Part shown: positions 32,148 through 62,650 of the stretch, one piece after another
How positions within the stretch are numbered: the stretch's first letter is position 1
Layout of the letters: each line of letters starts with the position of its first letter
Source: an uncultured Methanosarcinales archaeon
Lineage (GTDB): Archaea; Nanobdellota; Nanobdellia; Woesearchaeales; GW2011-AR9
Direction of reading: 5' to 3'
Length of the DNA: 64,000 nt
NCBI GenBank assembly: GCA_964498285.1
Contig: CAZCGN010000001.1
Coordinates: forward strand, 175,916-239,915
Program-made: the position numbers and the translations under genes
The notes under the pieces: model-generated
Databases searched by the model: none
What the model was told of the DNA's origin: nothing
The model's input: the letters and a program-made list of their open reading frames with translations, nothing else

Positions 32148-32311
32148 ACGAGAAAGCTGTTAAGATTTTAGGAAGCCTTGTAATGATTATTGTACTTCTT
32201 AATTTGGTACTGTTTGCGTTACGAAAGATTAATCAAACTATTTTTTGGGGCGTTATTATTTTCGGTGCTGTGTTTGCATATGTTGTTCTGCCAAGGTTGA
32301 AGAAGAGTTAA
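32144..32311 (+). CDS. Possible 55-aa two-helix membrane protein overlapping hisS stop
   Basis: ATGA overlap with the hisS stop. Translation MNEKAVKILGSLVMIIVLLNLVLFALRKINQTIFWGVIIFGAVFAYVVLPRLKKS. Below the ORF-track size cut-off. Confidence 0.25.
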   Translation: MNEKAVKILGSLVMIIVLLNLVLFALRKINQTIFWGVIIFGAVFAYVVLPRLKKS

Positions 32312-34377
32312 AGAATTTTGACAGCTTGTTCTCCTCGTTTCGGCCTTCCATCTTTGTCTTGTACTTGAGCATGAACTGCAACCCAACCCTTAGGCAAGTC
32401 TTCCATTTTTAGTTTAAACCCCTTTAAGGTTATCCTTCCTGTACTTTGAGAAGTGCTTCTCTTTTGCTTTGGGTTAGCAAATACTTGTTCCCCATTCGGC
32501 TTAACATAATACGCGATTACTTTGTATGGTGGGTTTGGTGTTTCATACCGGAAAGAAACCCTAACTGTCACAACATCATTAAGATACACATCGGTTTTAT
32601 CGAATCCAACATCTACATTATAATCAATTTTTCGCCCAGGTGGATTAGGGGGGACTGGAGGGTCTGGTGGCGGAACAGGCGGATCCGGTTGAGGCCCGGG
32701 ACCACCGCCACCTTCTGCTTTGGCCTTAGCTTTTGCTTCCAATTGAGCTATATTAGCTAACATAATTTCAATCTTCTCAAGATTCTCAAAGAGATGTATT
32801 GCAGGAGGGTTAATTATGATAGTTCTTTCTTCTTCTCTTTTAAGTTCGCGAACTAAATCCATTAAGAGTTCTAATCGCATCCGTAAGTCTTGAACTGAAA
32901 TTTCTTTTGCGCACTCTAACTTGAGAACGTCCACACTCGTCTTCAGATCTTTTAGTGTCCCATGAGTCGCTGCAAAGCCTTCATTAACATACCTTCTTAT
33001 TTCATCTATTCTTCTCGCTTCCGCCTCTAGTTCTGCTAAGATTTTCCTTGTTTGAGCTTCAGCTTCAGCCCGAAGTGCTCTTGTCTGAGCTTCAATCTCG
33101 GAACTGACATGCGTTTTAACATCCAAACTAGATCTTCTTGCCTCCTCAGCAAGTCTTTGTTCAGCTTCTCGTATTTCCTTTTTGATATCCCTTTCTGCAC
33201 CCTCAAGTCTTTCAATAAGAAGATTAAAACCTTGATCAAACCTTCTTCTAATTCTTCTACGTGTTTCTTCTGCAAGCTCGACAGCTACTCTTCGAACTTC
33301 TCTGATTTCATCTCTGTTAAGAATTATTTCTCTTCTATTCTCCAGGGTTGTTTCATTATTACGGTCAACTTTTGCTTCAATGTCATTAAGCTGTCCTGCA
33401 AGTGGTCCGATCCGACTGGTAAACTCACCTTCTAAATCTTCAAAACGTAGTGCTAATGCTGCGATCGCTTCAAGAATTTCATTTAATTGCTCATCATTTG
33501 GAGGTGGAACTGGTGGATTAGGAGGTACTGGGGGGTTAGGGGGAACAGGAGGATTGGGTGGCACTGGCGGATTAGGAGGTACAGGGGGGTTTGGAGGTAC
33601 TGGTGGAACCGGTGGATTAGGGGGGACAGGTGGATCGGGACCTGGCGGTGGAGGATTGGGCCTTGGTGGTAGAGGGCCTGGAGGATTCGGGTTTTTTCTT
33701 CTATCTTGCCTGAATCTCTCTACTAAGTCTGCAATTGCAGCAGGATCTAACCCATCTGAGCTGCCACCACAAGTGAGCAAACGAATCAAATAGTAAATGA
33801 GTAACAAAGTGGCAATCAAAACCTGCCACTCAATAAAATCATCAACTGCAGAAAAGACAGCGCCAGGATTGACCAACTGCGTTAAATGAAACTGCATGGC
33901 AGCAACGACCCATAAAAAAATCAAAGCGATCAAAGATTTCAAAGCATACATGGGGCAACTTGTCCCCATAGCATTCAATAAAAAGACCAAACCAACCAAA
34001 GGAAGAGCAACAAGAGCTAAACCAACAACAGTTGCAAAACCAGCACCTGCAGCTAGCAACACAGGAACTGGCAAGAAAATTGCAGAAATGGTAGCTATTA
34101 TACCAGTTATGATCAAACGCTGGTTACGAGAAAAAATGTTACTAAGCAAGCGAGATACACCAAACAAAATAGCGAACACTAAAAGCCAAACCAAAAGGCG
34201 AGTGAATGCGTCCAAAGAACTAGTACCAACACCCAAATAACTCAAACCAGCAACATATAAAATCCTACTCCAAACATTCTGTAAAGTCTGAGTCAAAGTG
34301 GCACCATGGACTAGAGGAAAGGAAAGGAGAATACCAACTAGCCACACACCTCTTACAATACGTTTCATGCTAACCAA
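32308..34377 (-). CDS. Large membrane/surface protein: membrane module A + proline-rich repeats + coiled coil + C-terminal beta-rich domain
   Basis: N-terminus paralogous to 22416-22997 (FTRLLVWLLVFAILF; IITGIIATISAIFLPVPVLLAAGAGFATVVGLALV). (PNPPVP)n array, long charged coiled coil, second Pro-rich stretch, then ~110-aa beta-sandwich-like domain. Confidence 0.5.
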   Translation of the reverse strand: MVSMKRIVRGVWLVGILLSFPLVHGATLTQTLQNVWSRILYVAGLSYLGVGTSSLDAFTRLLVWLLVFAILFGVSRLLSNIFSRNQRLIITGIIATISAIFLPVPVLLAAGAGFATVVGLALVALPLVGLVFLLNAMGTSCPMYALKSLIALIFLWVVAAMQFHLTQLVNPGAVFSAVDDFIEWQVLIATLLLIYYLIRLLTCGGSSDGLDPAAIADLVERFRQDRRKNPNPPGPLPPRPNPPPPGPDPPVPPNPPVPPVPPNPPVPPNPPVPPNPPVPPNPPVPPNPPVPPPNDEQLNEILEAIAALALRFEDLEGEFTSRIGPLAGQLNDIEAKVDRNNETTLENRREIILNRDEIREVRRVAVELAEETRRRIRRRFDQGFNLLIERLEGAERDIKKEIREAEQRLAEEARRSSLDVKTHVSSEIEAQTRALRAEAEAQTRKILAELEAEARRIDEIRRYVNEGFAATHGTLKDLKTSVDVLKLECAKEISVQDLRMRLELLMDLVRELKREEERTIIINPPAIHLFENLEKIEIMLANIAQLEAKAKAKAEGGGGPGPQPDPPVPPPDPPVPPNPPGRKIDYNVDVGFDKTDVYLNDVVTVRVSFRYETPNPPYKVIAYYVKPNGEQVFANPKQKRSTSQSTGRITLKGFKLKMEDLPKGWVAVHAQVQDKDGRPKRGEQAVKIL
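33500..33695 (-). repeat. Imperfect 18-nt tandem repeats encoding (PNPPVP)n
   Basis: GGNGGNACNGGNGGATTAGG-type units repeated about 9 times on the + strand. Confidence 0.6.
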
Positions 34378-35441: not shown

Positions 35442-36122
35442 CTAAAGTTGTTCTATAAGTTCTAAAGTGATTTCATCAAAACCATGAACTATCTTGTCTG
35501 CAAATTCTAAATCACTAGTAGAATTTCTCCCATTCAAAATCCCTATGACCTTCATTCCTGCGCGTGTTGCTGCAAGAACACCTGAACTAGAATCTTCAAT
35601 GACAACACATTCTTCTGGTGAAACATCAAGCATCTTTGCTGTTTTAAGATATATGTCCGGATGTGGCTTTCCGTTCTTAATAGCTTCTCCGGCATGAATT
35701 ATTTGAAAATATTTTTTTAGATCTATTGTTCTGAGAATACTATCTACCCCCATAAAAGAAGAACTAGAAGCAAGGCCCAAGGTATAATTCTGAGTATACA
35801 AGAATTCAATTAATCTACAGGATCCAGATATGGCTGATACCTTCCCTTGAACGATTGAACCAACTAGATTTGCTTTGCGTCGAATCAGAGCATCCGAATC
35901 AGCCTGTACATTGAAATCCTGCAATACTAATGCTGTCGAAAGAGATCCATGTTTGCCACAAATCCGCGAGTAGTAATATTTCTCATCGATCTCTATTCCT
36001 AATTCACTATACGCTAGGATCCATGCTTTGCAATGAAATGGTTCAGAATCAACAAGAACACCATCCATATCGAATATTATTGTTTTTTTTGCGCCCATCT
36101 TTTGCCTTATTTCATCCCCCAC
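35442..36122 (-). CDS. HAD-IA family hydrolase / beta-phosphoglucomutase-like
   Basis: Motif I IIFDMDGVLVDSEP, with motif II/III spacing typical of the beta-PGM subfamily. Confidence 0.65.
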   Translation of the reverse strand: MGDEIRQKMGAKKTIIFDMDGVLVDSEPFHCKAWILAYSELGIEIDEKYYYSRICGKHGSLSTALVLQDFNVQADSDALIRRKANLVGSIVQGKVSAISGSCRLIEFLYTQNYTLGLASSSSFMGVDSILRTIDLKKYFQIIHAGEAIKNGKPHPDIYLKTAKMLDVSPEECVVIEDSSSGVLAATRAGMKVIGILNGRNSTSDLEFADKIVHGFDEITLELIEQL

Positions 36123-37261
36123 TAATTTTTTATGGGCAGATCTACCGTTTCAAGAACATGTCCTTTCGAAGAAACGTTATACGGAATTAATTTGAAGTGA
36201 GGAGTTAGTCTACTTCGTAGAGCAATAAGATCTTCTGGGTTCGCTGCATACACCATGACTGATCCGCCGCCGCCGCCCAAAGGAAAACAAACTGCGTTAT
36301 AGTTTTGACATTCTTCGTAGATTTTCCACGCAGCAGAGCTCATATAATCATTACATAATTGTGTACGAATCTTTCTATACTCTTCAATTGGTTCAGAAAG
36401 TGCTGTCCAATTCTTAGTTCGAATAGCTTCACGATACTTGTATGCTAAAATTGGTTTTTTGCTATGAAGAAGGAATCCTGCCTTACGTTGAAGTTCTTCA
36501 CGCCATTTTACGTTAACATCACTACTATGCCGCTGAATACAAAAGTATACGTCCATCCTTTTTTCGAGCTCAGCATAATCAGAAGGAGAAAGTAATTCCA
36601 TGCGAGTCGATGAACCATAAAAATTCTCTTCTCCAGGAATTCCAAAAGGATGCCAGATATAATCTCTTATGCCACCATACATGACACAACTCTGTTCTTG
36701 CGTTCCTGTAAGACTTATTCCAAAATCTTGTTCCATCATTGAGGCCATACCAATTAGTTGAGTTTTAGAAAATGGTCTCCCACTTAGCTCATTAGCAAGA
36801 AGACACACGCCAGTTGTTACCGCTGCACTTCCCCCAAGACCCGCAGATTTGAGGGCTGGATGCTTATTTTGAATAGTAAACTTCACGCCATCTAAATCAA
36901 ACACTTTCATTATTCTTAGTAACCAGTTTTCTTTAATAGGAGGAATAAGATCCTTATCAAAGGTATAACAAAAACCATAATCTACCGATTCCACACACAA
37001 CTTCCCACGCTCAATTGGTTGAGCAAAAATTTCAATCCCTACATCAATACAAATTCCAACTGTTCGAGGGAGGTTACGTGACCAGAAAGCACACTCCTCA
37101 CCCTCTTGAGTAGGCGATTTCCCAGATATACTTGAAAAGGTTTGCTGCCAAAGTCTAAGATCTAAGCTTGAACCGGGACCGTCTATGCGCAAAAAAACTG
37201 TAAGTTTTCGACGCTTTCCGGAAAGTTCCAATTCTTGTAGAATATCATGAGCATCCATCAA
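36122..37261 (-). CDS. GHMP-family sugar kinase
   Basis: GHMP motif KSAGLGGSAAVTTGVCLL and C-terminal glycine-rich PLGGGGGSVMVY. Stop overlaps the HAD start. Confidence 0.65.
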   Translation of the reverse strand: MMDAHDILQELELSGKRRKLTVFLRIDGPGSSLDLRLWQQTFSSISGKSPTQEGEECAFWSRNLPRTVGICIDVGIEIFAQPIERGKLCVESVDYGFCYTFDKDLIPPIKENWLLRIMKVFDLDGVKFTIQNKHPALKSAGLGGSAAVTTGVCLLANELSGRPFSKTQLIGMASMMEQDFGISLTGTQEQSCVMYGGIRDYIWHPFGIPGEENFYGSSTRMELLSPSDYAELEKRMDVYFCIQRHSSDVNVKWREELQRKAGFLLHSKKPILAYKYREAIRTKNWTALSEPIEEYRKIRTQLCNDYMSSAAWKIYEECQNYNAVCFPLGGGGGSVMVYAANPEDLIALRSRLTPHFKLIPYNVSSKGHVLETVDLPIKN

Positions 37262-37311
37262 GAGATCGGAGTACTGTTTGTTTTTAAACTATTATGAAAA
37301 ACTGATCGCAA

Positions 37312-37323
37312 TCTTTATAAATG
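37312..37323 (+). promoter_or_regulatory. Putative TATA box for 5S rRNA
   Basis: CTTTATAAATGG about 25 nt upstream of the 5S 5' end. Confidence 0.35.
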
Positions 37324-37341
37324 GGTGAAAAAGTTGCAATA

Positions 37342-37455
37342 CCGGACGGTCATAGGGATGTGGTTCACCTGTTCCCATTTCGAACACAGAAGTTAAACAC
37401 GTTTCCGTATTGCCTGGTACTATACTTATGTATGGGAAGAGTGGTAAGCTGTCCT
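37342..37455 (+). rRNA. rrf: 5S ribosomal RNA (stand-alone gene)
   Basis: GGACGGTCATAGGGATGTGGTTCACCTGTTCCCATTTCGAACACAGAAGTTAAACACG...TATGGGAAGAGTGGTAAGCTGTCC. Conserved CCCAUxxCGAACACxGAAGUUAA core. 5' GGACGGU pairs with 3' GCUGUCC. Followed by a T6 archaeal terminator. Confidence 0.75.
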
Positions 37456-37530
37456 TTTTTCTTACTTAACTTTCCATAAGGTTTTTAACTGTATCCTCAA
37501 GTATCTAGTAGCTTATTGAGGTGAAGTTAC

Positions 37531-38277
37531 GTGAAATGTATTATTCCTTGTGCTGGTTACGCGACAAGACTCTATCCTTTAACAAAAGATAGACCAAAAG
37601 CTCTTCTGGATGTGCAAGGAAAACCCATATTAAATCATATCATTGCAAAGATTCAACAAATTGATGAGATTGATGAGATTTTTATTGTAAGTAATGAAAG
37701 ATTCTATAAACACTTTGATAGTTGGCTTAAAACAATTGACTGTTCAATACCAATCAGACTTATTAATGACCATACGAACTCTAACGAAGATAGACTTGGT
37801 CAAATTGGAGACATTAATCTCGCGCTCAAAGAGATGAGTGAGCCCACAGACATGCTTTTTATTTCAGGGGATAACCTCTTCAACTTTTCACTCAAAAAGC
37901 TGCATACATTTTTCAAAGAAAACAACGAATTCACTAATGGATTATACGATACAAAATCCTTTGAAGTTGCCCGAAACCTAGGTGTTGCAACTATGGATAC
38001 AAGTGGCAAGATTATTTCGTTCGAAGAAAAGCCGCAAAACCCAAAATCGACCCTCGTTTCATTAGGGATTTATTTTTTGCCCAAAAAACATTTTCACCTG
38101 ATGCAAAAATATCTTGCTTTAGGAAATAAGCCAGACAAAATTGGATATTTTCTAGTATGGCTTCTAGAAAATTATTGTTTATATGGCTTTGCCTATGAAG
38201 AAAAATGGTTTGATATTGGTTGGCAAGCGTCACTTGAGGAAGCGAGACAAGAGTTTGTTTGGAAGGATGAAAAATGA
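37531..38277 (+). CDS. Sugar-1-phosphate nucleotidyltransferase
   Basis: N-terminal MKCIIPCAGYATRLYPLTKDRPKALL (G-x-G-T-R-L motif), GT-A-like NTP_transferase fold. 248 aa. Confidence 0.75.
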   Translation: MKCIIPCAGYATRLYPLTKDRPKALLDVQGKPILNHIIAKIQQIDEIDEIFIVSNERFYKHFDSWLKTIDCSIPIRLINDHTNSNEDRLGQIGDINLALKEMSEPTDMLFISGDNLFNFSLKKLHTFFKENNEFTNGLYDTKSFEVARNLGVATMDTSGKIISFEEKPQNPKSTLVSLGIYFLPKKHFHLMQKYLALGNKPDKIGYFLVWLLENYCLYGFAYEEKWFDIGWQASLEEARQEFVWKDEK

Positions 38278-39479
38278 AACTCAAAGAATTTGAAGCAAAG
38301 AAACTTATCCAAGAAGTTGGGATTCCGACAAGTAAAGGGATTCTCATTACTGCAGAAGATGAAGTGCCAACAATCGCTGGGCCAACAATTGCCAAAGTTC
38401 AAACCATTGCAAATGGGCGGGGAAAGGCTGGCGGCATAAAAGTTATTGAAACATCGAAAGATGCTCAAGAATTTGCACGCAATTTTCTAGGAACAAAATT
38501 TTTAGGTGAGAAAATCGCTGAAATTCTCTTTGATCAGAAAGTTGATATAGCACAAGAATTCTATTTAGGTCTTCTTTTTGATACAACAAAACGCATGCCA
38601 GTGTTGGTTTTCTCTACACAAGGTGGAGTTGACATTGAAACACTAAGTAAAGAGTCTCCTGAAAAGATTCTTACACTTGAGATTGATTATCTTCAGGAAA
38701 TTACTCCTGCCCAAGCAGGTCTTGTAACACAGAGTTTGGAAATTGAAGAAAATGCAAAAAAGCAGCTACAAGATATTTTTACAAAACTCTTTACAGCATT
38801 CAAACGATTTGATTGTAAGATGATTGAGGTTAATCCACTTGTTCTCACGCCAAGCAATGATCTCATTGCTGTTGATTGTGTCGCTGTGCTTGACGATGAT
38901 GCAAAATATCGAAGGGAGATTGAATTTCCTGAGCGAACCGATACCCGTAAGGCAACAGACAGGGAAATAAGAGCACATCAAATTGATAAGGATGATCACA
39001 GAGGCGTTGCAGGAAAAACATACCTTGACCTTGATGGAGATATTGCGATCTTAACAAGTGGGGGTGGCGCTTCTATGACTCTTATGGACGCACTAGTAGA
39101 ATGTGGGGGTAAACCAGCAAACTTTACAGAGTATAGTGGAAACCCACCAATGGAAAAGGTTGAAAAGCTCACACAAATTGTGCTAGAAAAAGAAAATCTT
39201 TCTGGCCTTTTAATTGGAGGTGTTATTGCTAATTTTACTGATATTGCTGCAACTTTGCAAGGCGTTGTAAACATTTTGAAAGTAGTTAAGCCAACATATC
39301 CTATTGTTATTCGGCGTGCTGGACCGAATGATGATGAAGCAAAAAAAATGCTCGAAGAAGCCAGACAAGATTTTGGATTAAACATCCATTATTTTGATGA
39401 AAAAGTCCCACTTACAAAAGCTGCAAAGATCATGGTAGAACTATCAAACAAGTATAAAACAGAAAAAGGTGTGATGTGA
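38274..39479 (+). CDS. ATP-grasp subunit of citryl-CoA/succinyl-CoA synthetase type (SucC/CcsA/AclB-like)
   Basis: MKLKEFEAKKLIQEVGIPTSKG N-terminus like SucC, ATP-grasp region and C-terminal CoA-ligase domain. Overlaps the next gene by 4 nt. Confidence 0.6.
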   Translation: MKLKEFEAKKLIQEVGIPTSKGILITAEDEVPTIAGPTIAKVQTIANGRGKAGGIKVIETSKDAQEFARNFLGTKFLGEKIAEILFDQKVDIAQEFYLGLLFDTTKRMPVLVFSTQGGVDIETLSKESPEKILTLEIDYLQEITPAQAGLVTQSLEIEENAKKQLQDIFTKLFTAFKRFDCKMIEVNPLVLTPSNDLIAVDCVAVLDDDAKYRREIEFPERTDTRKATDREIRAHQIDKDDHRGVAGKTYLDLDGDIAILTSGGGASMTLMDALVECGGKPANFTEYSGNPPMEKVEKLTQIVLEKENLSGLLIGGVIANFTDIAATLQGVVNILKVVKPTYPIVIRRAGPNDDEAKKMLEEARQDFGLNIHYFDEKVPLTKAAKIMVELSNKYKTEKGVM

Positions 39480-40402
39480 TGAGCATACTCATAGATGAAC
39501 GGACTACTTTCCTAATTCAAGGGATTACTGGAAAACAAGGTGCTAGGGCGTGCTCAGAGATGCTCAAAGCTGGATCAAAAGTTGTGTGCGGCGTCACACC
39601 AAAAAAAGGTGGGCAAGAAGTTGAAGGAGTACCTGTCTTTAACTCTATTCAAGAAGCACTTGATTCTGGTCACACACCAACATGTAGTGTCATACTTGTG
39701 CCACCAAGATTTGCAAAAGGTGCAATTAAAGAAGCAATTACCGCATCAATTCCACTCATTAATGTCGTAACCGAAAATATCCCCATTCATGATATGGCAG
39801 AATGTTTTGCACTTGCAAAAAAGCAAGGGATTAGAATAGTTGGCCCCACCTCGGCAGGCATTTATTCTGTAGGAAAGTCAAAGTGCGGCCCAATTGCTTC
39901 AGGCAAATCAAAAATCGCATTTAGCAAAGGAACAATTGGCGTTATTTCTCGTAGTGGAGGAATGTCTTCTGAAACATCGTTAGTACTTAGTCAAGCGAGA
40001 CTCGGTCAATCAACTGTTGTAAGTTGCGGGAGTGACGTCCTTATGGGAGAAGCGTTTAGGGAACTTGTTCCACTCTTCGAAGAAGATTCCAAAACGCAAG
40101 GCATTGCTATTTTTGGGGAGATTGGAGGAACATCTGAAGAAGATCTTGCGGCATACTTAATACAACGTAAAAAGGAAGGCAAACCATTTACAAAACCAAT
40201 TGTAGCATTCATTTCAGGAACATTTGCTGAAAACCTAGGGATTCAAAATGTCTCGTTGGGACACGCTGGCGCCATTATCGAAGGAAATAAGGGAACACGA
40301 GAAAACAAAGTAAAAACTTTAAAAGAGGCAGGCGTTATTATTGCTCAAGTGCATCATGAAGTAGGTAACCTTATGAGAAAAGCGCTTGAAGAAGAGAGAT
40401 AG
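39476..40402 (+). CDS. CoA-binding/phosphohistidine subunit (SucD/CcsB-like)
   Basis: FLIQGITGKQGARACSEMLKAGSKVVCGVTPKKGG matches the SucD N-terminus. Active-site loop SLGHAGAIIEGNKGT. Confidence 0.65.
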   Translation: MMSILIDERTTFLIQGITGKQGARACSEMLKAGSKVVCGVTPKKGGQEVEGVPVFNSIQEALDSGHTPTCSVILVPPRFAKGAIKEAITASIPLINVVTENIPIHDMAECFALAKKQGIRIVGPTSAGIYSVGKSKCGPIASGKSKIAFSKGTIGVISRSGGMSSETSLVLSQARLGQSTVVSCGSDVLMGEAFRELVPLFEEDSKTQGIAIFGEIGGTSEEDLAAYLIQRKKEGKPFTKPIVAFISGTFAENLGIQNVSLGHAGAIIEGNKGTRENKVKTLKEAGVIIAQVHHEVGNLMRKALEEER

Positions 40403-40411
40403 CAATTAAAA

Positions 40412-41137
40412 ATGGAATATAAAACAAGAATCTCAAAATTACAAGAAGAACATACAATTAGAGGAGAAAAACTTTCCACGCTTGTGCAAAAAAATTCCTT
40501 TTCATACAATATTTTCTTTTTAGTTCTAGGAAGAAAGCCATCTGAAGCTGAAGCAACATTATTTGATAAGATGCTCAGTTGCGTGATTGACCATGGCATG
40601 GGTACAACTTCTTCTCAAACCGCAAGGTTCATAGCATCAGGTGGGAACGAGGTTAATGTTGCTGTTGGTGGCGCTCTTTTAAGTATTGGTGATTACCATG
40701 GTGGAGCTATTAAAAATGCAATGTCACAGTTCTATGCGTGGGAAAAATCGCAAAATGTCCAAGAACTTGTTGAGGAGATGATCACGCACAAGAAAACACT
40801 TTTTGGATTTGGTCATAAACACTATAAGAAAGGAGATCCGAGAGTTGCTGCACTTAAGGAAGAAATGAAACGTTTAGGATTTGAATCACGTTTTAGTAAA
40901 TATCTTGACATAGTTGAGGCAGCATTTGTAAAAGTAAAAGGAAGAGCAATTCTTGCAAATATCGATGGAATGATTGCTGCGCTCCTATGTGATTTTGGAG
41001 CTGATCCCAAACTTGGCAAAGGTTTTTTCCTTATTGGAAGAACTCCTGGACTTGTCGCACAGACAATTGAAGAACTCACGCATGAAAAGCCCGTTCGAAG
41101 AGTCCCTGAAGGCCAAATAGAGTACACTGAAGAGTAA
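40412..41137 (+). CDS. Short citrate-synthase-like protein (citryl-CoA lyase-type)
   Basis: 241 aa with citrate synthase C-terminal catalytic region (GGALLSIGDYHGGA, FGFGHKHYKKGDPRV) but lacking the N-terminal half of full-length citrate synthase. Confidence 0.5.
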   Translation: MEYKTRISKLQEEHTIRGEKLSTLVQKNSFSYNIFFLVLGRKPSEAEATLFDKMLSCVIDHGMGTTSSQTARFIASGGNEVNVAVGGALLSIGDYHGGAIKNAMSQFYAWEKSQNVQELVEEMITHKKTLFGFGHKHYKKGDPRVAALKEEMKRLGFESRFSKYLDIVEAAFVKVKGRAILANIDGMIAALLCDFGADPKLGKGFFLIGRTPGLVAQTIEELTHEKPVRRVPEGQIEYTEE

Positions 41138-41143: not shown

Positions 41144-41704
41144 TCATTTTGGTTTAATCCCTCGTTCTCTTAAACGATCTCGTAATCTTTGTCTTGCACG
41201 AAAAAGTCGATTCATAGCAGTCCCTTTTGGAATTGCTAAATGCTCTTGGATTTCTGAGTATGTTAAACCATCATAATGCCTAAGCCTAATTATCTGAGCG
41301 TGCGCAGGCGAAATTGTATCGAGCGCTTCTTCAATTCCTTCTCTAATTTGTCTAGCCCAAACTGGATCTGAATCATAACTAGGAGTTACCCAATTCTCGT
41401 CGAAACTAACTCTTCTTCCAACCAGATCTCTTCTTTTCTTTCTAGACCAATAATCTCTCACAACATTAACAGTAACCACCGTTGCCCAAGCCTTAAACGG
41501 CTTATCAGGATGATACGTATGTATGCCTCTAGTTATTCGCAGTAATGCTTCTTGTAAAAGATCCTCAGCAGTTGCTTCATCCCCCCTCAATAATTTCAAG
41601 ACCAACATATATGCCGATGGTTGGTACGAACGAAGAAGAGAATCTAAAGCTGAACTATCTCCTGCTACTGCTAACCTACCAAGATCTACTTCATCACAAC
41701 CCAT
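41144..41704 (-). CDS. ECF-type sigma-70 family RNA polymerase sigma factor (bacterial-type)
   Basis: Region 2 (EDLLQEALLRITRGIHTYHPDKPFKAWATVVTVNVVRDYWSRKKRR) and region 4 (LDTISPAHAQIIRLRHYDGLTYSEIQEHLAIPKGTAMNRLFRARQRLR). Confidence 0.7.
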   Translation of the reverse strand: MGCDEVDLGRLAVAGDSSALDSLLRSYQPSAYMLVLKLLRGDEATAEDLLQEALLRITRGIHTYHPDKPFKAWATVVTVNVVRDYWSRKKRRDLVGRRVSFDENWVTPSYDSDPVWARQIREGIEEALDTISPAHAQIIRLRHYDGLTYSEIQEHLAIPKGTAMNRLFRARQRLRDRLRERGIKPK

Positions 41705-44280: not shown

Positions 44281-44517
44281 ATGGATAAGGTAGATTTCAT
44301 AGAGTTTTGTGCGGAATTTTGGCAAATAGATAGGTCTGAGATCAGAGATGAAATGCAGCTTGATGATACAAATTTACCAAATAACAGCTCAATTAGATTC
44401 TACCAGTTCATAGCCATGCTCGAAGCCAAATTTGGTCTTCATGTACAAAACATCAACTCAATATCGACTTTTGGGGATTTGTACTTAGATCTTACAAAAT
44501 CCAGAGAACATTTATAA
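44281..44517 (+). CDS. Small carrier-protein-like protein (possible acyl/peptidyl carrier)
   Basis: 78 aa, four-helix-bundle-like pattern with a candidate Ser in NNSSIRFYQFIAMLE. Immediately upstream of acpS. Confidence 0.35.
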   Translation: MDKVDFIEFCAEFWQIDRSEIRDEMQLDDTNLPNNSSIRFYQFIAMLEAKFGLHVQNINSISTFGDLYLDLTKSREHL

Positions 44518-44541
44518 TTCTTTGTAAGTTTTGGGAACTCA

Positions 44542-44874
44542 ATGGTCCAAGGCATAGGAGTGGATATAGAAGAGATTGCACGTTTTAAAGAATCATATAA
44601 AGATGAACATTTTATCAACTTAGTTTTTACCCCTCGTGAAATTGCGTACTGTCAGAAGAAGAAAGAACCGTATATTAGTTTTGCAGGAAAATTTTGTGCC
44701 AAAGAAGCCGTAATTAAAGCAAGCAGCAAACCCCTTAGTGTTAAACAAATAGAGATTATAAATGAAAAAGATGGACAACCCACTGTCTTTATTAACGGGA
44801 TTAAAGAACCCTTCATTTCCTGTAGTATTTCGCACACAAAAGATAACGCCATAGCCTTTGTCATTATGAAATAA
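44542..44874 (+). CDS. acpS: Holo-ACP synthase (4'-phosphopantetheinyl transferase, AcpS type)
   Basis: GIGVDIEEIARF, FTPREIAYC, AGKFCAKEAVIKA and ISHTKDNAIAFV match AcpS signature blocks. 110 aa. Confidence 0.75.
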   Translation: MVQGIGVDIEEIARFKESYKDEHFINLVFTPREIAYCQKKKEPYISFAGKFCAKEAVIKASSKPLSVKQIEIINEKDGQPTVFINGIKEPFISCSISHTKDNAIAFVIMK

Positions 44875-44876
44875 AA

Positions 44877-45506
44877 ATGGAAGAGACGATTAGCAAGAAA
44901 CATAATTATTCCCAAGGTACCACCAGTTCTATTACAGTTCAGATTAAAAGTAGTAATATCCAAAAGGTAATTGAAAAGTTTAGAGAAGAAGAAAAACTGA
45001 ACATTAGTCCTGGAGATATAATTACCCATGCTGCTGGTCAGGCTTTACTAGATTTTCCTGAGTTTAATTCATCCTTTGCTAAGAAAGGAGAGCCATATCC
45101 TGATGTAAACATAGGCTATGCCATTAACCTTGGGCACGGACCAAAAACAGTTGTCATAAAAAGTGTTGCAAACAAATCTATTATTGAAGTTGCAAGTGAA
45201 GTTAAAAAATTGGCAGTAAAATATATTCGAAAAGAACTCTCAGAGGAAGATATGAATGGAGGGACTTTTTCTATATCGAACCTGTCTTCATTTGGAGTCC
45301 ACACAATGAACACCCCTACATTTGAGGATCAGTCCGCGTTACTTTCAATAAATTCAGAATATGACTCTATTGAATTCATTAAAGAAAGACCAATTCCAAT
45401 AAAACTATTTAACCTCTCACTCTCTTTTGATTTCCGTGTAGCAAACTGCCAACAAGCAGCTCAATTTTTAAAAAAAATTAAACATTTGCTTGAGAAATGT
45501 GACTAA
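44877..45506 (+). CDS. CAT / 2-oxoacid-dehydrogenase-E2-like acyltransferase fold protein
   Basis: C-terminal LSLSFDFRVANCQQAAQFL resembles the E2 DHRxxDG catalytic block, with Phe in place of the catalytic His. Confidence 0.35.
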   Translation: MEETISKKHNYSQGTTSSITVQIKSSNIQKVIEKFREEEKLNISPGDIITHAAGQALLDFPEFNSSFAKKGEPYPDVNIGYAINLGHGPKTVVIKSVANKSIIEVASEVKKLAVKYIRKELSEEDMNGGTFSISNLSSFGVHTMNTPTFEDQSALLSINSEYDSIEFIKERPIPIKLFNLSLSFDFRVANCQQAAQFLKKIKHLLEKCD

Positions 45507-45946
45507 CTTTTCAATTCCATAGTTTTATCTTCGAGAACGGTTACTTTGGCATTTCCATCAACAACAACTTCACCATTACAAATGATTTCTGTTTCCATAA
45601 TAATAACTCTTACACTATCAATCTTATCTTTAACTTTTCCCCGTATTAAAAGGGTAGAATTCGGATAGACTGGTTTTTTGAAATTTAGCTGTTGTGTTAA
45701 ACAAAGACATTTCTCACCTGGGCAAAGCATTCCAAAAAGAGTTGAAAAGTAGCTTGAAAGATGCAATCCGTGTGCAATAATTCCGTTAAACTGGGTCTTT
45801 TTGGCAAATGCTTCATCACAATGAAGGGGTTGCTTATTTCCCGTCAAAGAAATAAAATCATCAATACTCTCTTTTGTAAGAAGCTGAGTAAACTCAAACA
45901 CAGAACCAATTTTAATTTCCTCATAACTAAAACAGTTTGCATCCAT
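45503..45946 (-). CDS. MaoC-like hot-dog fold dehydratase
   Basis: 147 aa. Hot-dog core with GKVKDKIDSVRVIIMETEIICNGEVVVDG pattern. Confidence 0.55.
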   Translation of the reverse strand: MDANCFSYEEIKIGSVFEFTQLLTKESIDDFISLTGNKQPLHCDEAFAKKTQFNGIIAHGLHLSSYFSTLFGMLCPGEKCLCLTQQLNFKKPVYPNSTLLIRGKVKDKIDSVRVIIMETEIICNGEVVVDGNAKVTVLEDKTMELKS

Positions 45947-45949
45947 CTT

Positions 45950-46438
45950 TTATGTATTTTCACCTAAAGCCCCATGTTTTTTGAGAGCTTCTTTGATTTG
46001 GCCATATGTTCTAAGTTGCATAACTTCCTGTGTTGTAAACCTAACATTGAATGCTTTTTCTAAATCAGAAAAGAGCATCATACCTGCAAATGAATCATTT
46101 GATGTGAGCAAATCGCTGTTCAGACCTGCTTTAAGATCCTTTGTATCGATATTAAGATTTTTTTGAAGTATCTCCTGAAGTTTCTCTTCAGGAGTTTCCT
46201 TTTTCAACACTATCTGCTTACTTTGAAGAATTGTAATAATTTGTTCAACGTTGTTGAGTCGTAATATCTCTTCTTCTCTAAACGTAATGAGAAAAGATTT
46301 TTCAAGTTCAGCAATGATCTTAAAGTGGGCAAGAGAATCCCATCCTTCAACATTAAGCATTGAAGAATCAAGAGTGATTTTTGCTTGATCCAGACCTAAT
46401 GCTTGAGCCACAACTTCTTTAACTTTCTCATCAATCAT
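45950..46438 (-). CDS. Tandem (didomain) acyl carrier protein
   Basis: First domain has canonical LNVEGWDSLAHFKIIAELEKSF (DSL phosphopantetheine site). Second domain has TSNDSFAGMMLFSDLEKAF. Confidence 0.55.
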   Translation of the reverse strand: MIDEKVKEVVAQALGLDQAKITLDSSMLNVEGWDSLAHFKIIAELEKSFLITFREEEILRLNNVEQIITILQSKQIVLKKETPEEKLQEILQKNLNIDTKDLKAGLNSDLLTSNDSFAGMMLFSDLEKAFNVRFTTQEVMQLRTYGQIKEALKKHGALGENT

Positions 46439-46468
46439 TTTTTGCTCCCTCTAGCCAAATGGAGTTAT

Positions 46469-49276
46469 TTACTTTATATATTTGTCTGTATAATATGCTC
46501 GCAATTTTCGATAGAGTATCTTTTTTGTCGGCCCTTTGGGGATATTATCTAAATCTTCAAGTGTATTAATTATGATTATTTCTTTTGGTTGCTTGTATCC
46601 TGCAAGCTTTCCTGACAAAAAATCTATTAACTCTTCTTTTGTTGTAGAGCCATTTTCATGCAGCTTCACAAAAGCGCAAACTTCTTCTCCAAGTAGAGGG
46701 TGAGGAATCCCAATCACTGCGCATTCAGAAACACTATTATGTTTGAACAAAACATTCTCAACCTCACTTGGATAAATGTTCTCTCCCCCCTTAATGATCA
46801 AGAAATCTTTACGTGTCTTAAAGTAGATATAACCATCTTCATCTTTGTATCCAAAATCTCCACTACGAAACCAGCCATCTCTAAAATTCTGTTTGTTCTT
46901 CTCTTCAAGGTCAAAATATTCGTTCACAACATTCAAGCCGCGAATACAAATCTCTCCTTCTTGATGAGGTTGGAGTTCACAATCATTTTCATCACGTATA
47001 GTAATTCTATTAATAGGAAATTCTCTTCCAACTGATCCTTCTTTCCGCTTTTCTTTTGGATAATTGTTAAAACAAGCAAACGATGTTGTTTCTGTAAGAC
47101 CATAGCCTTCAAAAATTGGAACACTGAATCTTTCTTCAAATTTTCGTTGCACTTCTCTTGTAAGTACTTGCCCCCCACAGATTATCCCCCGCATTGATGT
47201 GTCTTTCCGCTCAATTGGCATACTAAGTAATATTGATAAAATTGAGGGCATAACACTTGTCCAGTTAACATTGTACTTATCAACAACAGACCAAAATGCA
47301 AGTAAGCTTGCCTTTCCTTGGATAATTACTGTTGACCCACCTGAATAAAGAGGTGTGAGAAGAGTTATCACCTGCCCATTGTTGTGAAATAACGGAAGAA
47401 TACAAAGTGTTCTTGTGGTTTTAGTAAAATGAAACCACTCAGAGATCACTTTGGCATCAGAAAGAAGGTTAAGATGAGTTAGCACTGCTCCTTTAGGATT
47501 TCCAGTGGTACCCGAAGTATAAATAATAACTGCTTCATCAGTAAGGTTTACCTTTGGAAAAGTGGATCTCACCTCCAAGATAGAATCATCCAAATCCCTC
47601 TCTTTAAGATTGCGAATCTCTGTTGCAGGACAAATCTCGACTTCTGATGAGACTTGACCTTTCAGTTCCTCAATTTTGGTTTTCAGTGATGAATCATAGA
47701 AAACTGTCTTGGATCTTGATTGGGTGATAATATAAGCCATTTCAGGCGCAGAAAGAGCTGGGTTAATTGGAACAACAGTTATGCCTAAGCGCAAAGCTGC
47801 AAAGTAAAGTAAAACAAATTCAGGAGAGTTTGGAATTATCAGGTTTATTCGCTCACCTTTGGAAACCTTTTTCTCTAAAAGATAATTTGCAACTTTTAGC
47901 AACATGTAATCAAACTCTTGATATGAAAATGATTCATTCATTCCTGGGAAAAAGGCAAAGGTTTTGTCTGGATCTTCTTGCACTTTTGCAGAAAATAGTT
48001 CATACACATTGTTATACTCAATTGGAAATGGCTCTCCTAACTTTTGGTGATCAAAAAGTTGCTCATCTTCCACAAGTATTGATGCTTCTTGTAGGGCAGG
48101 TTTTTCTAAGTATTGTTCTACAACATCCATTATATCTTGTAGAGTAGTCATCTTTAGAGAATCTCGAAACTTTATCTCGATACCAAACTTTTTTTCTACT
48201 GCAGAGAGGAGTTGAATATGTTTTAAAGAGTCCCACTCAAGATATTTTTCCATTGAGATATTCTCTTCATCTAATGAAAGATTGAGTACTTGCTCAAACA
48301 CTTCCTTAAGCCCTTCTCTAATTAAACTGTTAACCGAACTTTGTTTTGTGTTTGTATTAAAATGGCCTATAATATTTTGTGCCGCAAGTTGTGCCATATT
48401 ATGCCTGCATTCCTTTGTTGCAGTTCCAATGTGAGGAATTACAATACAATTCGGAAGATTACAAATAGGATGATTACCAGAAATTGGCTCAGGATCTGTA
48501 ACATCTAAACATGCCCCACGAACTTGCCCACTTTTTAAGGCAGCATAAAGATGATCAGTGTTTACGACTCCTCCACGAGCCATGTTAAGAAGGATAGGTT
48601 TTCTCGCCATTTTATTAAATGCAATTTGATCAATCAAGCCTTTTGTTTCTTCAGATAAAGGAACGTGTAAAGAAATATAATCTGAATGCGCAAGTAAGTA
48701 GTCCAGATCAACTTGTTTTACAGGAGGATCTTCTGAATCTACTTTTGAACGGTTGTGATATATTACATTAAGATCAAACCCCCGAGCTCGCTGGGCGACA
48801 GCTTTCCCTATTTTTCCAAAACCAATTATCCCAAAAGTCTTTCCACTCAACTCTTCTCCTAAGAACAGTTCTGGATCCCATGATTTCCAATTATCACTCC
48901 TGACAAATTCCTGTGCCAAAGATACTTGCCGTATTAGTTGCAAGAGAAGAGCAAAAGTCATATCCGCAGTGCTATTAGTTACAACGTTCGGCGTGTTATA
49001 AATAAAGATCCCTCTCTTTTTTGCATATTCCAAATCAATGTTGTCAAGACCTACTGCAAAATTTGAGATTACTTGAAGGTTGTTTTTAAGATCAAGAATC
49101 TCGGGAGTAAACTTTTCAGTAACTGAAGAGAGAATGCCATCATAACTGGAGACAACTTCTTTAAGTTTTTCTACAGAAAGAGGAGCATTATCATAACTTT
49201 CGTCCACGTGAAAATGTGCAGAGAGAATCTCTCTTGCAACCTTAGGCAACCTTCTTGTGATAAATATCTTTTTCAT
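46469..49276 (-). CDS. Tridomain enzyme: D-isomer 2-hydroxyacid dehydrogenase - carrier protein - AMP-binding adenylation domain
   Basis: The N-terminal ~310 aa form a D-isomer 2-hydroxyacid dehydrogenase domain (NAD-binding GKTFGIIGFGKIGKAV, catalytic His/Glu/Arg pattern). The middle ~70 aa are a carrier domain (EKYLEWDSLKHIQLLSAVEKKFG). The C-terminal ~530 aa are an adenylation domain (IIYTSGTTGNPKGAVLTH, YGLTETT, YFKTRKDFLIIKGGENIYPSEVE). 935 aa. Confidence 0.7.
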   Translation of the reverse strand: MKKIFITRRLPKVAREILSAHFHVDESYDNAPLSVEKLKEVVSSYDGILSSVTEKFTPEILDLKNNLQVISNFAVGLDNIDLEYAKKRGIFIYNTPNVVTNSTADMTFALLLQLIRQVSLAQEFVRSDNWKSWDPELFLGEELSGKTFGIIGFGKIGKAVAQRARGFDLNVIYHNRSKVDSEDPPVKQVDLDYLLAHSDYISLHVPLSEETKGLIDQIAFNKMARKPILLNMARGGVVNTDHLYAALKSGQVRGACLDVTDPEPISGNHPICNLPNCIVIPHIGTATKECRHNMAQLAAQNIIGHFNTNTKQSSVNSLIREGLKEVFEQVLNLSLDEENISMEKYLEWDSLKHIQLLSAVEKKFGIEIKFRDSLKMTTLQDIMDVVEQYLEKPALQEASILVEDEQLFDHQKLGEPFPIEYNNVYELFSAKVQEDPDKTFAFFPGMNESFSYQEFDYMLLKVANYLLEKKVSKGERINLIIPNSPEFVLLYFAALRLGITVVPINPALSAPEMAYIITQSRSKTVFYDSSLKTKIEELKGQVSSEVEICPATEIRNLKERDLDDSILEVRSTFPKVNLTDEAVIIYTSGTTGNPKGAVLTHLNLLSDAKVISEWFHFTKTTRTLCILPLFHNNGQVITLLTPLYSGGSTVIIQGKASLLAFWSVVDKYNVNWTSVMPSILSILLSMPIERKDTSMRGIICGGQVLTREVQRKFEERFSVPIFEGYGLTETTSFACFNNYPKEKRKEGSVGREFPINRITIRDENDCELQPHQEGEICIRGLNVVNEYFDLEEKNKQNFRDGWFRSGDFGYKDEDGYIYFKTRKDFLIIKGGENIYPSEVENVLFKHNSVSECAVIGIPHPLLGEEVCAFVKLHENGSTTKEELIDFLSGKLAGYKQPKEIIIINTLEDLDNIPKGPTKKILYRKLRAYYTDKYIK

Positions 49277-49303
49277 ATTTTTATATGCATTAGTCCTTCT
49301 TGT

Positions 49304-50611
49304 TTAGAGATCATTTGTGTAGTTAACTTCTGAAGATCTCTCCATTGAGGAAGTATTTGGAAGCGTTTCTTTTTTTCTTCTCAAATATTCGCCGACTTTC
49401 TTCATCCCTTGTTCTATAACTTCCAAATTATTGACTAATGGTCCAAAAGACACTCGTACTGCACCTGATAGAGTCCTACCAAAACCCCAACCTGGTACAA
49501 AAAGAACTGCAGATTCCTTAAGCACTTCTTCAACAAATTTTGCCCCATCATCACCAACTTTAATACAAGTATATAAACCACCTTTAGGTGTGAGTGCTGG
49601 AAGACCGATATATTCTTTGATTGCTTTAACTGTATGTTCGCCTGCTCGCCTATATTGTTCACTAATTTGTTTTGTATACGATCTTAAAGTGTTATTTTCT
49701 ATTGCATCGTTGAGATACTTTGTTAAAGCCATCTGATGAAGATTGTCGGGACAAAGAATGGATGACCCTTGAATTGATTCTAATGCGTGAACAATTTCAC
49801 TACTTGCCTCAATCCATCCTAACCGTCTTCCAAGACTTCTGCTCCACTTGGAGTTTGAATGAATTGTTAAGAAATGATCATCTGGTTTCCAGGAAAAGTA
49901 TTCTGGAAGATTTTCATCAAAGACCATATCCTTATACGCAAAATCAACAATGAGAAAACTTCCAACCTCCTTTACTGCTCTGAGGGCTGATGCAACAAAA
50001 TCATCTGACAAGACTTGTGAGGTTGGATTATCAGGCGAGACTAATAACACTACTTTTGGTCGTTCCTGAAGAATAAAATCATAAAACTCTTGGCATCGTC
50101 GATCCGCAACGTACTCCCATCGCTCAGTATCAATAACAGGAAAGCGTACAACTTCAACGTCTAAAGCAGTCGTTACCTGCGAAGGAAGATTACAATAACT
50201 TGGATCAAGAAGCGCCACTTTATCACCAGGGTTTAACAATACTTGCATAAGGTTAAAGGTAAGTTGAGTTGAACTCGCACCAATTGCTATATGCTGTGGC
50301 TCAAGCCCCAGGGTGCCATACAAATGGCTTTCATACCGAATAATGGCCTTTTTGCACTCAGGACTTCCAAGCGTTGCAGAATAACCACCGGACATGTGAA
50401 AACTTGCCTCATTTGAAACTATTTCTTGGTATGCTTTTTGTAATAATGATGGAGCTTTGTGATTAACCCACCCCCCGGCAAATGAGATAACTTCTGATGC
50501 TTCAACCCCTATTTTTTTAAAGTACGCTGGATCTGCATAGTCCATAATTTGCCTAATTGGAGAGATTGTTCTCCGAAAACTAAGTGATTTATCTGATAAC
50601 ATTGGTTTCAT
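49304..50611 (-). CDS. Class I/II PLP-dependent aminotransferase
   Basis: SNSKWSRSLGRRLGW (PLP-lysine region) and fold-type-I spacing. 435 aa. Confidence 0.7.
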   Translation of the reverse strand: MKPMLSDKSLSFRRTISPIRQIMDYADPAYFKKIGVEASEVISFAGGWVNHKAPSLLQKAYQEIVSNEASFHMSGGYSATLGSPECKKAIIRYESHLYGTLGLEPQHIAIGASSTQLTFNLMQVLLNPGDKVALLDPSYCNLPSQVTTALDVEVVRFPVIDTERWEYVADRRCQEFYDFILQERPKVVLLVSPDNPTSQVLSDDFVASALRAVKEVGSFLIVDFAYKDMVFDENLPEYFSWKPDDHFLTIHSNSKWSRSLGRRLGWIEASSEIVHALESIQGSSILCPDNLHQMALTKYLNDAIENNTLRSYTKQISEQYRRAGEHTVKAIKEYIGLPALTPKGGLYTCIKVGDDGAKFVEEVLKESAVLFVPGWGFGRTLSGAVRVSFGPLVNNLEVIEQGMKKVGEYLRRKKETLPNTSSMERSSEVNYTNDL

Positions 50612-50649
50612 TCTAGTATACCTCTTGTCGTGATTATTTTGTGATCATT

Positions 50650-51402
50650 TTATACGACCATCCCCCCGTCAATAACGAGAACCTGGCCTGTAACATAGCT
50701 TGACATTGCAGTTGCTAAGAACAGTGCACCTTTTGCAATCTCTTCTGGTTTTGCAATTCTTCGTAGTGAAGTTCTACTAACAAGTTTTTCCACGCGAGCC
50801 TTATCTAACGCATCTAGCATGTCTGTTTGAGTCAATCCTGGTGCTAGAGCATTTACTCGTATGCCCACCTCTCCCAACTCTTTTGCCGCAGCTTTTGTAA
50901 GCCCTATTACTCCTGCTTTACTTGAACAATACGGGGTTTGGCCCGCGTTTCCATAAATCCCAACCGAAGAAGTAACATTTATGATCCTGCCTCCATTTGG
51001 ATTGCTCATCATAAGTTTAGTTGCTTCATGCAAACAGTTATATGTTCCTTTTAAGTTAACATTCAAAATAGCATCCCAATCCTGCTCCTCTGTTTTTACA
51101 ATAAGATTATCTTTTAAGATTCCCGCATTATTAACAAGAACATCTATTTTGCCAAATTTTTCTTTGATCGTACGAAACATTTCAGCAACTTCATAAGAAT
51201 TACTTACATCTGCCTTAACCAAAAGCACTGTTGCTCCAATTTGTATGATCTCTTCTGCGGTTCTTTGTGCCTCAATATGATTCTTCAAATAATTTACTAT
51301 AACCATAGCTCCTTGCTTTGCAAACTCTAAAGCTATCGCTCGTCCAATTCCCCGACTTGCCCCAGTTACTAGGGCCACTTCCCCACGCATAAGGTCGATC
51401 AT
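50650..51402 (-). CDS. fabG: SDR-family 3-oxoacyl-(ACP) reductase (FabG-like)
   Basis: TGASRGIGRAIA, NNAG, and the YCSSKAG catalytic tetrad region. Confidence 0.8.
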   Translation of the reverse strand: MIDLMRGEVALVTGASRGIGRAIALEFAKQGAMVIVNYLKNHIEAQRTAEEIIQIGATVLLVKADVSNSYEVAEMFRTIKEKFGKIDVLVNNAGILKDNLIVKTEEQDWDAILNVNLKGTYNCLHEATKLMMSNPNGGRIINVTSSVGIYGNAGQTPYCSSKAGVIGLTKAAAKELGEVGIRVNALAPGLTQTDMLDALDKARVEKLVSRTSLRRIAKPEEIAKGALFLATAMSSYVTGQVLVIDGGMVV

Positions 51403-51491
51403 TTATAAACCTCTTCTGGTTGCATCAGGAGTATAAATAGATTATGGTCTTAGGGAACAGCAATCATCATGGGGGAAATCTACGAGGAGAA

Positions 51492-56068: not shown

Positions 56069-56118
56069 GATTCGATCTTTAACAATCTTTTTAAGGTGTC
56101 CATCTCAAGGAATTTTCT

Positions 56119-62648: not shown

Positions 62649-62650
62649 TC

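Follow-up and report, generated by a model that had tools for sequence, protein, structure and literature searches.

The closest described relatives of the locus reported here are two enzyme systems, citryl-CoA synthetase (CCS) with citryl-CoA lyase (CCL) from H. thermophilus, and ATP-citrate lyase (ACL), which carries out the same overall reaction. CCS/CCL is a kind of enzyme reportedly known since the work of Aoshima et al. in 2004, and it is also known from the structures 6HXQ and 6HXP. Homologues in DPANN archaea and in bacteria of the candidate phyla radiation (CPR) were found to be monophyletic with CCS/CCL and mis-annotated in GenBank (bioRxiv 10.1101/2022.10.25.513756), CCS/CCL has been mentioned in a few DPANN metagenome-assembled genomes (MAGs; Cai et al. 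2021), and relatives already carry the JGI label “citryl-CoA synthetase large subunit”. No K15232–K15234 or ‘citryl’ entry is found in the supplements of the main comparative-genomics paper on Woesearchaeota, and a 2026 survey of complete genomes of the Nanobdellota, the GTDB phylum containing Woesearchaeales, counted the α subunit as succinyl-CoA synthetase and listed no citrate-handling enzyme (bioRxiv 10.64898/2026.05.13.725050). Here we analysed a stretch of 64,000 nucleotides (the window) from contig CAZCGN010000001.1 of assembly GCA_964498285.1 (positions 175,916–239,915, forward strand), deposited as an uncultured Methanosarcinales archaeon, and describe a cluster of three genes, ccsA-ccsB-ccl, which probably encodes a two-enzyme system for ATP-dependent citrate cleavage composed of CCS and CCL.

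The ccsA-ccsB-ccl cluster and its host

All three genes lie on the forward strand: ccsA (38274–39479) encodes the predicted CCS large subunit, a protein of 401 residues with an ATP-grasp and an ACL-type citrate-binding domain (P1), ccsB (39476–40402) encodes the predicted CCS small subunit, with a CoA-binding and a phospho-histidine domain (P2), and ccl (40412–41137) encodes a predicted CCL of 241 residues with a truncated citrate-synthase fold (P3). The stop of ccsA and the start of ccsB overlap in the motif GTGATG, which gives P2 308 residues from the GTG at 39476 or 307 residues from the ATG at 39479, the latter being the choice of the gene callers and probably the start in use; ccsB ends in TAG, followed by a 9-nt spacer and the ATG of ccl. 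At the other end, an ATGA overlap joins the start of ccsA to the stop of a gene for a sugar-1-phosphate nucleotidyltransferase (37531–38277, forward strand; AglF/GlmU-N-like, Pfam NTP_transferase), with which the transcript that includes ccsA probably begins; its top NCBIfam matches are archaeal GlmU and AglF, with every score below cut-off. The Pfam domain E-values across the three proteins (2e-47, 1.4e-27, 1.2e-21 and 9.5e-39) are far past chance, and identical proteins in the same gene order occur both on an NCBI contig of 780 kb and in a Logan assembly made independently.

A preliminary description of this DNA had pointed to three tightly linked or overlapping genes, a GHAGAIIE motif in a SucD-like subunit, a protein of 241 residues carrying the C-terminal half of citrate synthase, and an archaeal host, and in each respect the analysis agrees. 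The three open-reading frames (ORFs) were found at that place and on one strand, the motif lies in P2 (L261–I268, LGHAGAII), and P3 aligns with positions 139–355 of the 357 positions of Pfam Citrate_synt, leaving ~140 N-terminal profile positions without a counterpart. The host is a DPANN (Woesearchaeota-like) archaeon: the window encodes a family-B DNA polymerase, a thermosome, HerA, a presenilin-type signal peptide peptidase and an M24 methionine aminopeptidase, and the nearest relatives of P1, at 55–70% identity, belong to Woesearchaeota, Nanoarchaeota and unclassified “archaeon” MAGs. A scan for bacterial-type promoters and terminators returned background level only, as expected in an archaeon.

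The large subunit carries an ACL-type citrate-binding domain

In P1, Pfam detects ATP-grasp_2, at 161.9 bits, together with Citrate_bind (PF16114), whose score of 96.8 bits exceeds the cut-off of 26.8; Ligase_CoA, the domain expected of SucC, gives no Pfam match. P1 fails both NCBIfam SucC models (274.5 bits against a cut-off of 375.55, and 272.5 against 370), authentic H. thermophilus CcsA is likewise below cut-off at 215 bits, and control SucC sequences from metagenomes reach 532–595 bits. The best solved structure is 6hxq_B, the large subunit of H. thermophilus CCS (6.3e-61), ahead of SucC 3ufx_B (8.9e-54) and AclA 6hxj_A (7.8e-43). When the C-terminal domain is taken alone, CcsA ranks first and Chlorobium AclA second, followed by Methanothrix ACLY-A and human ACLY, with SucC last.

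The citrate-binding residues that the preliminary description had proposed to look for are present. G289, N320-F321-T322 (loop at 39231–39239, forward strand) and R347-R348 (39312–39317, forward strand) of P1 align with G309, N346-F347-T348 and R378-R379 of human ACLY (5tde_A, 3mwd_A), among which G309, N346, T348 and R379 are reportedly the citrate ligands (Sun et al. 2010; 3MWD), with R348 of P1 as the equivalent of the carboxylate ligand R379. Equivalents of these four are retained in 73–75 of 75 family members. SucC differs at three of the positions: N320 (74/75 in the family) falls in a gap in 31 of 31 SucC sequences, T322 (74/75) is mostly methionine there (19/31), and R348 (73/75) is replaced by L, M, I or V; the R348 equivalent is found in CcsA, AclA and ACLY too. 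A neighbour-joining tree was built from the 75 family members together with CcsA and three C-terminal fragments of ACL, and with SucC from T. aquaticus and from metagenomes (30 sequences). It separated the family, CcsA and ACL from the 31 SucC sequences in 97 of 100 bootstraps, with CcsA nested within the family. The SucC-like ATP-grasp subunit of the preliminary description is thus placed with CcsA and ACL, as expected of a part of CCS. The metagenomic SucC and SucD outgroups were loci at 30–35% identity from a metagenome scan with rebuilt H. thermophilus CcsA, a sample of which passes the SucC/SucD models; the same scan returned only ordinary sucCD loci and no Aquificota ccsAB loci.

The small subunit groups with CcsB

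P2 contains the Pfam domains CoA_binding and Ligase_CoA, and fails both NCBIfam SucD models (270.9 bits against a cut-off of 336, and 263 against 353.2), as does authentic CcsB (222 bits), with control SucD at 446–473 bits. Pairwise, P2 is nearer to archaeal SucD (2yv2_A, 1.4e-68) than to CcsB (1.6e-52). With a profile built from 35 sequences of the P2 family, CcsB moves up to 318.6 bits, close to the 330–370 bits of SucD. Two insertions are common to the P2 family and CcsB and missing from SucD, one of 4 residues in the ‘IGxIGGxxxx’ loop and one of 2–4 residues before the phospho-histidine, and the loop preceding GHAGA is 11–13 residues long in the P2 family, 11 in CcsB and 9–10 in 33 SucD sequences. 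Neighbour-joining placed the family with CcsB against 33 SucD sequences, two of them archaeal, in 60 of 60 bootstraps, so that on phylogenetic placement, too, the small subunit behaves as had been suggested. From the family profile, the shared insertions and this split it follows that the higher SucD score of P2 reflects a long CcsB branch, not membership of SucD. G262-H263-A264-G265-A266 is invariant in the 35-sequence alignment, and His263 (40262–40264, forward strand), in this GHAGA loop, is the predicted phospho-histidine, by analogy with the mechanism of succinyl-CoA synthetase (SCS) and ACL.

The lyase is a truncated citrate-synthase fold with conserved active-site residues

P3 narrowly passes the NCBIfam citryl-CoA lyase model NF004869 (218.7 bits against a cut-off of 212), which is also the top model of authentic H. 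thermophilus CCL (417 bits), and scores at most 104 bits on citrate synthase and 2-methylcitrate synthase models whose cut-offs are 330–620. Its best solved structure is CCL 6hxp_A (1.2e-50), followed at a distance by the best citrate synthase (2.3e-20) and the CCL module of ACL (~1e-10). The active-site residues of E. coli citrate synthase are H229, H264, H305, R314, D362, F383, R387 and R407 (PMC13147460), and their counterparts in P3, mapped by motif and spacing, not by direct alignment to the E. coli enzyme, are H61, H96, H135, R144, D185, F206, R210 and R230. The predicted catalytic triad spans 40697–40966 on the forward strand (H96 at 40697–40699, H135 at 40814–40816 and D185 at 40964–40966, equivalent to E. 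coli H264, H305 and D362). In a set of 62 CCL-like sequences, made up of P3, the 239-residue H. thermophilus CCL and 60 homologues pre-selected at 215–300 residues, the eight residues are retained in 58–62 sequences and H96, H135 and D185 in all 62; the length is 230–259 residues in 58 of the 62.

The domains, NCBIfam models, structures, residues and trees together support the split CCS and CCL proposed in the preliminary description, and we regard the identification of the enzymes as very likely. That description had also said what would speak against it, namely subunits clustering firmly within SucCD and a short citrate-synthase-like protein without catalytic His and Asp; both subunits instead separate from SucC and SucD in the trees, and P3 holds the His/His/Asp set together with the oxaloacetate and CoA contacts. 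Its fallback, an ADP-forming acyl-CoA synthetase paired with a lyase, is not supported, as P2 scores 70 bits on TIGR02717 (cut-off 567) and P1 19.1 on ATP-grasp_5 (cut-off 27.6), and on the same scores we rejected ADP-forming acetyl-CoA synthetase (ACD).

Distribution and gene order among relatives

Relatives of P1 are encoded in at least 490 stretches of species-representative genomes, a set that does not include the genome of the window itself, the best locus being 63% identical. The titles of the 80 best loci include Woesearchaeota, Micrarchaeota, Nanoarchaeales, Nanohaloarchaea, several CPR phyla, Chloroflexota, Acidobacteriota, Actinomycetota and one Heimdallarchaeon, although lineage counts are approximate, as placeholder-like MAG titles (“uncultured Methanosarcinales”, “uncultured Gammaproteobacteria”) were regrouped by similarity and neighbours. 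In 68 of 78 loci with a clustered ccsA ORF, ccsA is succeeded by a ccsB-like gene on its own strand, and a ccsB-like tblastn match was obtained in 81 of 84 fetched loci. The ccl-like gene comes after ccsB in 58 of the 78, and a ccl-like ORF is present in 64 of 83 clustered loci, with no adjacent ccl in the loci of Blastocatellia, Chloracidobacterium and Actinomycetota. Among the 80 related loci ccsB and ccl are never fused into one ORF, as the P2 and P3 clusters stay apart, and with the TAG stop and 9-nt spacer between the two genes in the window this led us to reject a fused ATP-citrate lyase.

Several loci carry additional genes within or beside the operon. In some Woesearchaeota these are foreign insertions, a Fic-domain gene between ccsB and ccl (L003 9201–10499, on the same contig as L020) and a small DUF2061 ORF at the same junction (L002 9098–9307). 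In two proteins (P0064 and P0070) CcsA is extended at its N-terminus by a fused HAD-family hydrolase, and a HAD gene stands between ccsA and ccsB in eight Nanohaloarchaea-type loci (L056 4214–4906 and seven others). Throughout the Curtissbacteria-type loci, a gene for a multi-pass membrane protein (DUF5656; L004 10635–11435 and 14 related loci) stands just 3′ of ccl, and its product is a possible candidate for a carboxylate transporter. No recurring TCA (tricarboxylic acid cycle) enzyme, oxaloacetate-using enzyme or obvious carboxylate transporter was found beside the operon across the 80 loci, and none in the window.

Other neighbours are specific to lineages. Genes for an AglF-like nucleotidyltransferase, an AglM-like UDP-glucose dehydrogenase and a family 2 glycosyltransferase (GT2) surround the cluster in the window and in 9 of 15 close Woesearchaeota-type loci; we do not take this as a family-wide functional link to sugar-nucleotide genes, as these neighbours are confined to that clade. 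In CPR-grouped loci, a gene for a small GNAT acetyltransferase (~140 residues) lies near ccsA in 16 of 30, across several CPR classes and in both orientations, and within ~170 bp of ccsA in 11–12 of those 16 (L004 6503–6928, L052 9640–9999, L078 9587–9985 and 13 other CPR-grouped loci; L010 and L013 are also examples). It is possible that this enzyme consumes the acetyl-CoA produced. Its resemblance to GNA1 (glucosamine-6-phosphate N-acetyltransferase) is weak and no more than a lead, with 40 bits to 3fb3/3i3g, ~22 bits to annotated GNA1 chains and NCBIfam generic GNAT scores below cut-off, and no GNAT homologue is present in the 64-kb window.

Proposed mechanism, direction and role

The chemistry proposed here is derived from the established mechanism of SCS and ACL. 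The ATP-grasp domain of CcsA would bind ATP, and the phosphoryl group would move to His263 on the swinging loop of CcsB, from where it would be passed to citrate held on the C-terminal domain of CcsA (G289/N320/T322/R348), giving citryl-phosphate. CoA on the Rossmann domain of CcsB would then displace the phosphate to form citryl-CoA, which H96, H135 and D185 of CCL would split into acetyl-CoA and oxaloacetate by a retro-Claisen reaction. Citrate is the presumed substrate. We lean towards a flux in the cell that runs in the direction of cleavage, for which the free energies of the two steps are slightly exergonic (−5.9 ± 3.9 and −2.1 ± 3.9 kJ/mol; PMC13147460). Surveys report no citrate synthase in 446 Nanobdellota genomes (bioRxiv 10.64898/2026.05.13.725050), few TCA genes in Woesearchaeota (PMC8421398), and CCS and CCL as the sole enzymes of the reverse TCA (rTCA) cycle in Nanohaloarchaea (bioRxiv 10.1101/2022.10.25.513756). 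Together with the free energies, these reports point to an external citrate without internal use, which would come from the host or the environment.

Several points weigh against citrate cleavage by CCS and CCL as we describe it. The pairwise score of P2, taken alone, favours SucD, the trees were made by neighbour joining on Kimura-corrected distances, and their references are sequences reassembled from PDB alignment printouts (ACL being represented by C-terminal fragments only). A near-equilibrium reaction could run backwards, and the window, 64 kb out of a genome of roughly 780 kb, contains no acetyl-CoA sources, oxaloacetate sinks or citrate transporters. Some relatives encode pyruvate dehydrogenase (PDH) or pyruvate:ferredoxin oxidoreductase (PFOR) together with ACD, so that CCS/CCL is not obviously needed there for acetyl-CoA and a claim that it is the sole source would be unsafe. 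Oxaloacetate supply and catabolism of scavenged citrate are equally possible roles.

The reverse direction, in which CCL would condense acetyl-CoA with oxaloacetate and CCS would release citrate while making ATP, in effect an energy-conserving citrate synthase, appears unlikely to us. ACL of Desulfobacter postgatei works in the ATP-forming direction, which counts for such a reversal, as does the closeness of both steps to equilibrium at the values given above. The Nanobdellota are moreover reported to have neither citrate synthase nor respiration and to rely on substrate-level phosphorylation (bioRxiv 10.64898/2026.05.13.725050). However, downstream TCA enzymes able to consume the citrate are reported to be few or absent, ACD or Pta-AckA, which many relatives possess, would give ATP from acetyl-CoA more cheaply and spare the oxaloacetate, and the standard free energy favours cleavage. 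If it were true, the operon would provide substrate-level phosphorylation or a supply of citrate in a phylum without ordinary citrate synthase.

We consider it improbable that the same chemistry acts on another hydroxy-polycarboxylate (2-methylcitrate, homocitrate or a malate-type acid) with products that differ from acetyl-CoA and oxaloacetate. The citrate-synthase fold does occur in 2-methylcitrate synthases, to which P3 is a weak match (104 bits against 421), but the citrate-loop residues of ACLY and all of the oxaloacetate and CoA contact residues of citrate synthase are conserved, and CCL itself is both the top model and the top structure of P3 by a wide margin.

More improbable still is that citrate cleavage is one shared step of an rTCA cycle split between symbiont and host, the kind of syntrophic carbon fixation put forward for Nanohaloarchaea in 2022. 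The idea draws on the report that haloarchaeal hosts miss only the citrate-cleaving step and that nanohaloarchaeal symbionts have only that step (bioRxiv 10.1101/2022.10.25.513756). It is speculative, would need citrate, oxaloacetate and carbon derived from acetyl-CoA to pass between cells in bulk, and sits poorly with an operon that occurs also in CPR bacteria, Chloroflexota and Acidobacteriota of very different lifestyles; nothing in the 64-kb window bears on a shared cycle. The window contains no 2-oxoglutarate:ferredoxin oxidoreductase, fumarate reductase, aconitase or isocitrate dehydrogenase, and such enzymes are reported to be largely missing from the phylum (PMC8421398; bioRxiv 10.1101/2022.10.25.513756; bioRxiv 10.64898/2026.05.13.725050).

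Finally, ordinary SucCD with a degenerate citrate synthase fragment, or an ADP-forming acetyl-CoA synthetase, is hardly credible: relatives go at NCBI by the names ‘acetate--CoA ligase family protein’ or ‘succinate--CoA ligase subunit beta’ and P2 scores higher pairwise for SucD, but P1 and P2 fail cut-offs that real SucCD exceed by 100–200 bits, P1 has a citrate domain in place of the Ligase_CoA signature, trees and indels part both subunits from SucCD, P3 keeps 8 of 8 active-site residues across 62 sequences, and the ACD model is missed by the margin given above.

Returning to citrate cleavage by CCS and CCL, we tentatively suggest that the orphan operon of DPANN and CPR organisms without a TCA cycle may be a prokaryotic counterpart of eukaryotic cytosolic ACLY, in which citrate from the host would deliver acetyl-CoA and oxaloacetate and the acetyl-CoA would serve to acetylate envelope sugars or other targets. 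The hints behind this suggestion are the AglF/AglM/AglG-like glycan genes of Woesearchaeota and the adjacent GNAT gene of many CPR loci. Whichever the role, a citrate-cleaving (or citrate-forming) operon in hundreds of reduced-genome archaea and bacteria without other TCA steps is an unexplained metabolic node, and its conservation bears on what symbionts draw from their hosts. The identification also corrects a recurring annotation error, in that GenBank calls relatives acetate- or succinate-CoA ligase. New here are the evidence from residues and indels that covers both subunits of CCS, the explanation of why P2 resembles SucD, the breadth and colinearity of the operon, its lineage-specific neighbours and the persistence of the misnaming at NCBI and in the 2026 survey.

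Flanking genes and other features of the window

Directly upstream of the nucleotidyltransferase-ccsA-ccsB-ccl cluster lies a lone 5S rRNA gene (37342–37457, forward strand), with a TTTATAAAT box ~20 nt upstream and a T-run after the gene; no 16S or 23S gene was found within the 64-kb window. It is flanked (35442–38277) by genes for a GHMP-family kinase and a beta-phosphoglucomutase-family HAD hydrolase, both on the reverse strand, and by the nucleotidyltransferase on the forward strand, a set that looks like a sugar-1-phosphate activation route, with all specific NCBIfam models below cut-off. On the other side of the cluster, an ECF-type sigma-70 factor gene (Sigma70_r2, r4_2; 41144–41704, reverse strand) is present in this archaeal genome. 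It is an orphan, with a best non-self match of 34% identity and named matches that are bacterial (Planctomycetota), its GC content at third codon positions (0.24) is in line with that of its neighbours, and the same arrangement is seen in the independent assembly. As it stands where relatives have a short junction between ccl and the UDP-glucose dehydrogenase or GT2 gene, it appears to be an old insertion.

Further downstream is a long cluster of surface-decoration type (44281–63451). Its carrier and acyl part comprises an acyl carrier protein, a phosphopantetheinyl transferase, a free-standing 2-oxoacid_dh-type acyltransferase, a MaoC dehydratase and a second carrier protein, and it also encodes a 935-residue fusion of 2-hydroxyacid dehydrogenase, PP-binding and AMP-binding domains, an aminotransferase, an SDR, a methyltransferase, a GDSL hydrolase, an MBOAT, a CDP-alcohol phosphatidyltransferase, a flippase and a cytidylyltransferase-PEP (phosphoenolpyruvate)-mutase fusion, with a phosphonate ABC transporter after the cluster. 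A protein of 689 residues (32308–34377, reverse strand), without a Pfam match, has membrane segments at its N-terminus, long proline repeats (PNPPVPP) and, in its middle, a charged section that resembles a coiled coil; it is possibly located at the cell surface. At 7181–8481 and 9228–11185 there are two HIT-domain genes in tandem and two closely spaced paralogues of RNase HII.

Comparison with known systems

SucCD resembles P1 and P2 in having two subunits with an ATP-grasp domain, a CoA-binding domain and a phospho-histidine loop, but SucC is without the ACL-type citrate loop and the second arginine of P1, and SucD is without the two loop insertions of P2. P3 has its catalytic core and the full set of eight active-site residues in common with citrate synthase and 2-methylcitrate synthase, but not the N-terminal portion.

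The CCS/CCL of H. thermophilus agrees in much more: both systems consist of three separate polypeptides with the same domain make-up, the N, T and R of the citrate loop and the catalytic residues of CCL are the same, and the proteins behave alike on the NCBIfam models. The two are nonetheless distant (Kimura-corrected distances of 1.26 for CcsA and 1.39 for CcsB), F321 of P1 is as in ACL where H. thermophilus CcsA has an asparagine, and here ccsA, ccsB and ccl form one tight cluster. H. thermophilus is an rTCA autotroph, whereas the host here is a non-autotrophic DPANN archaeon with a reduced genome.

ATP-citrate lyase (AclAB of Chlorobium limicola, 6HXJ; ACLY-A/B of Methanothrix, 6HXI; and eukaryotic ACLY) has the same overall reaction and catalytic modules, and its citrate loop, ‘IANFT’, is identical to that of P1. 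The similarity of P1, P2 and P3 to ACL chains is lower than to CCS/CCL, and ACL fuses the CcsB-like and CCL-like parts in one chain, which are separate here. P1 aligns with positions 114–413 of ACLY, P2 with 550–802 and P3 with 890–1036, the order of the genes thus being the order of the domains. This colinearity suggests that ccsA-ccsB-ccl is an unfused form of ATP-citrate lyase, and a surviving instance of the state before fusion from which that enzyme has been proposed to originate.

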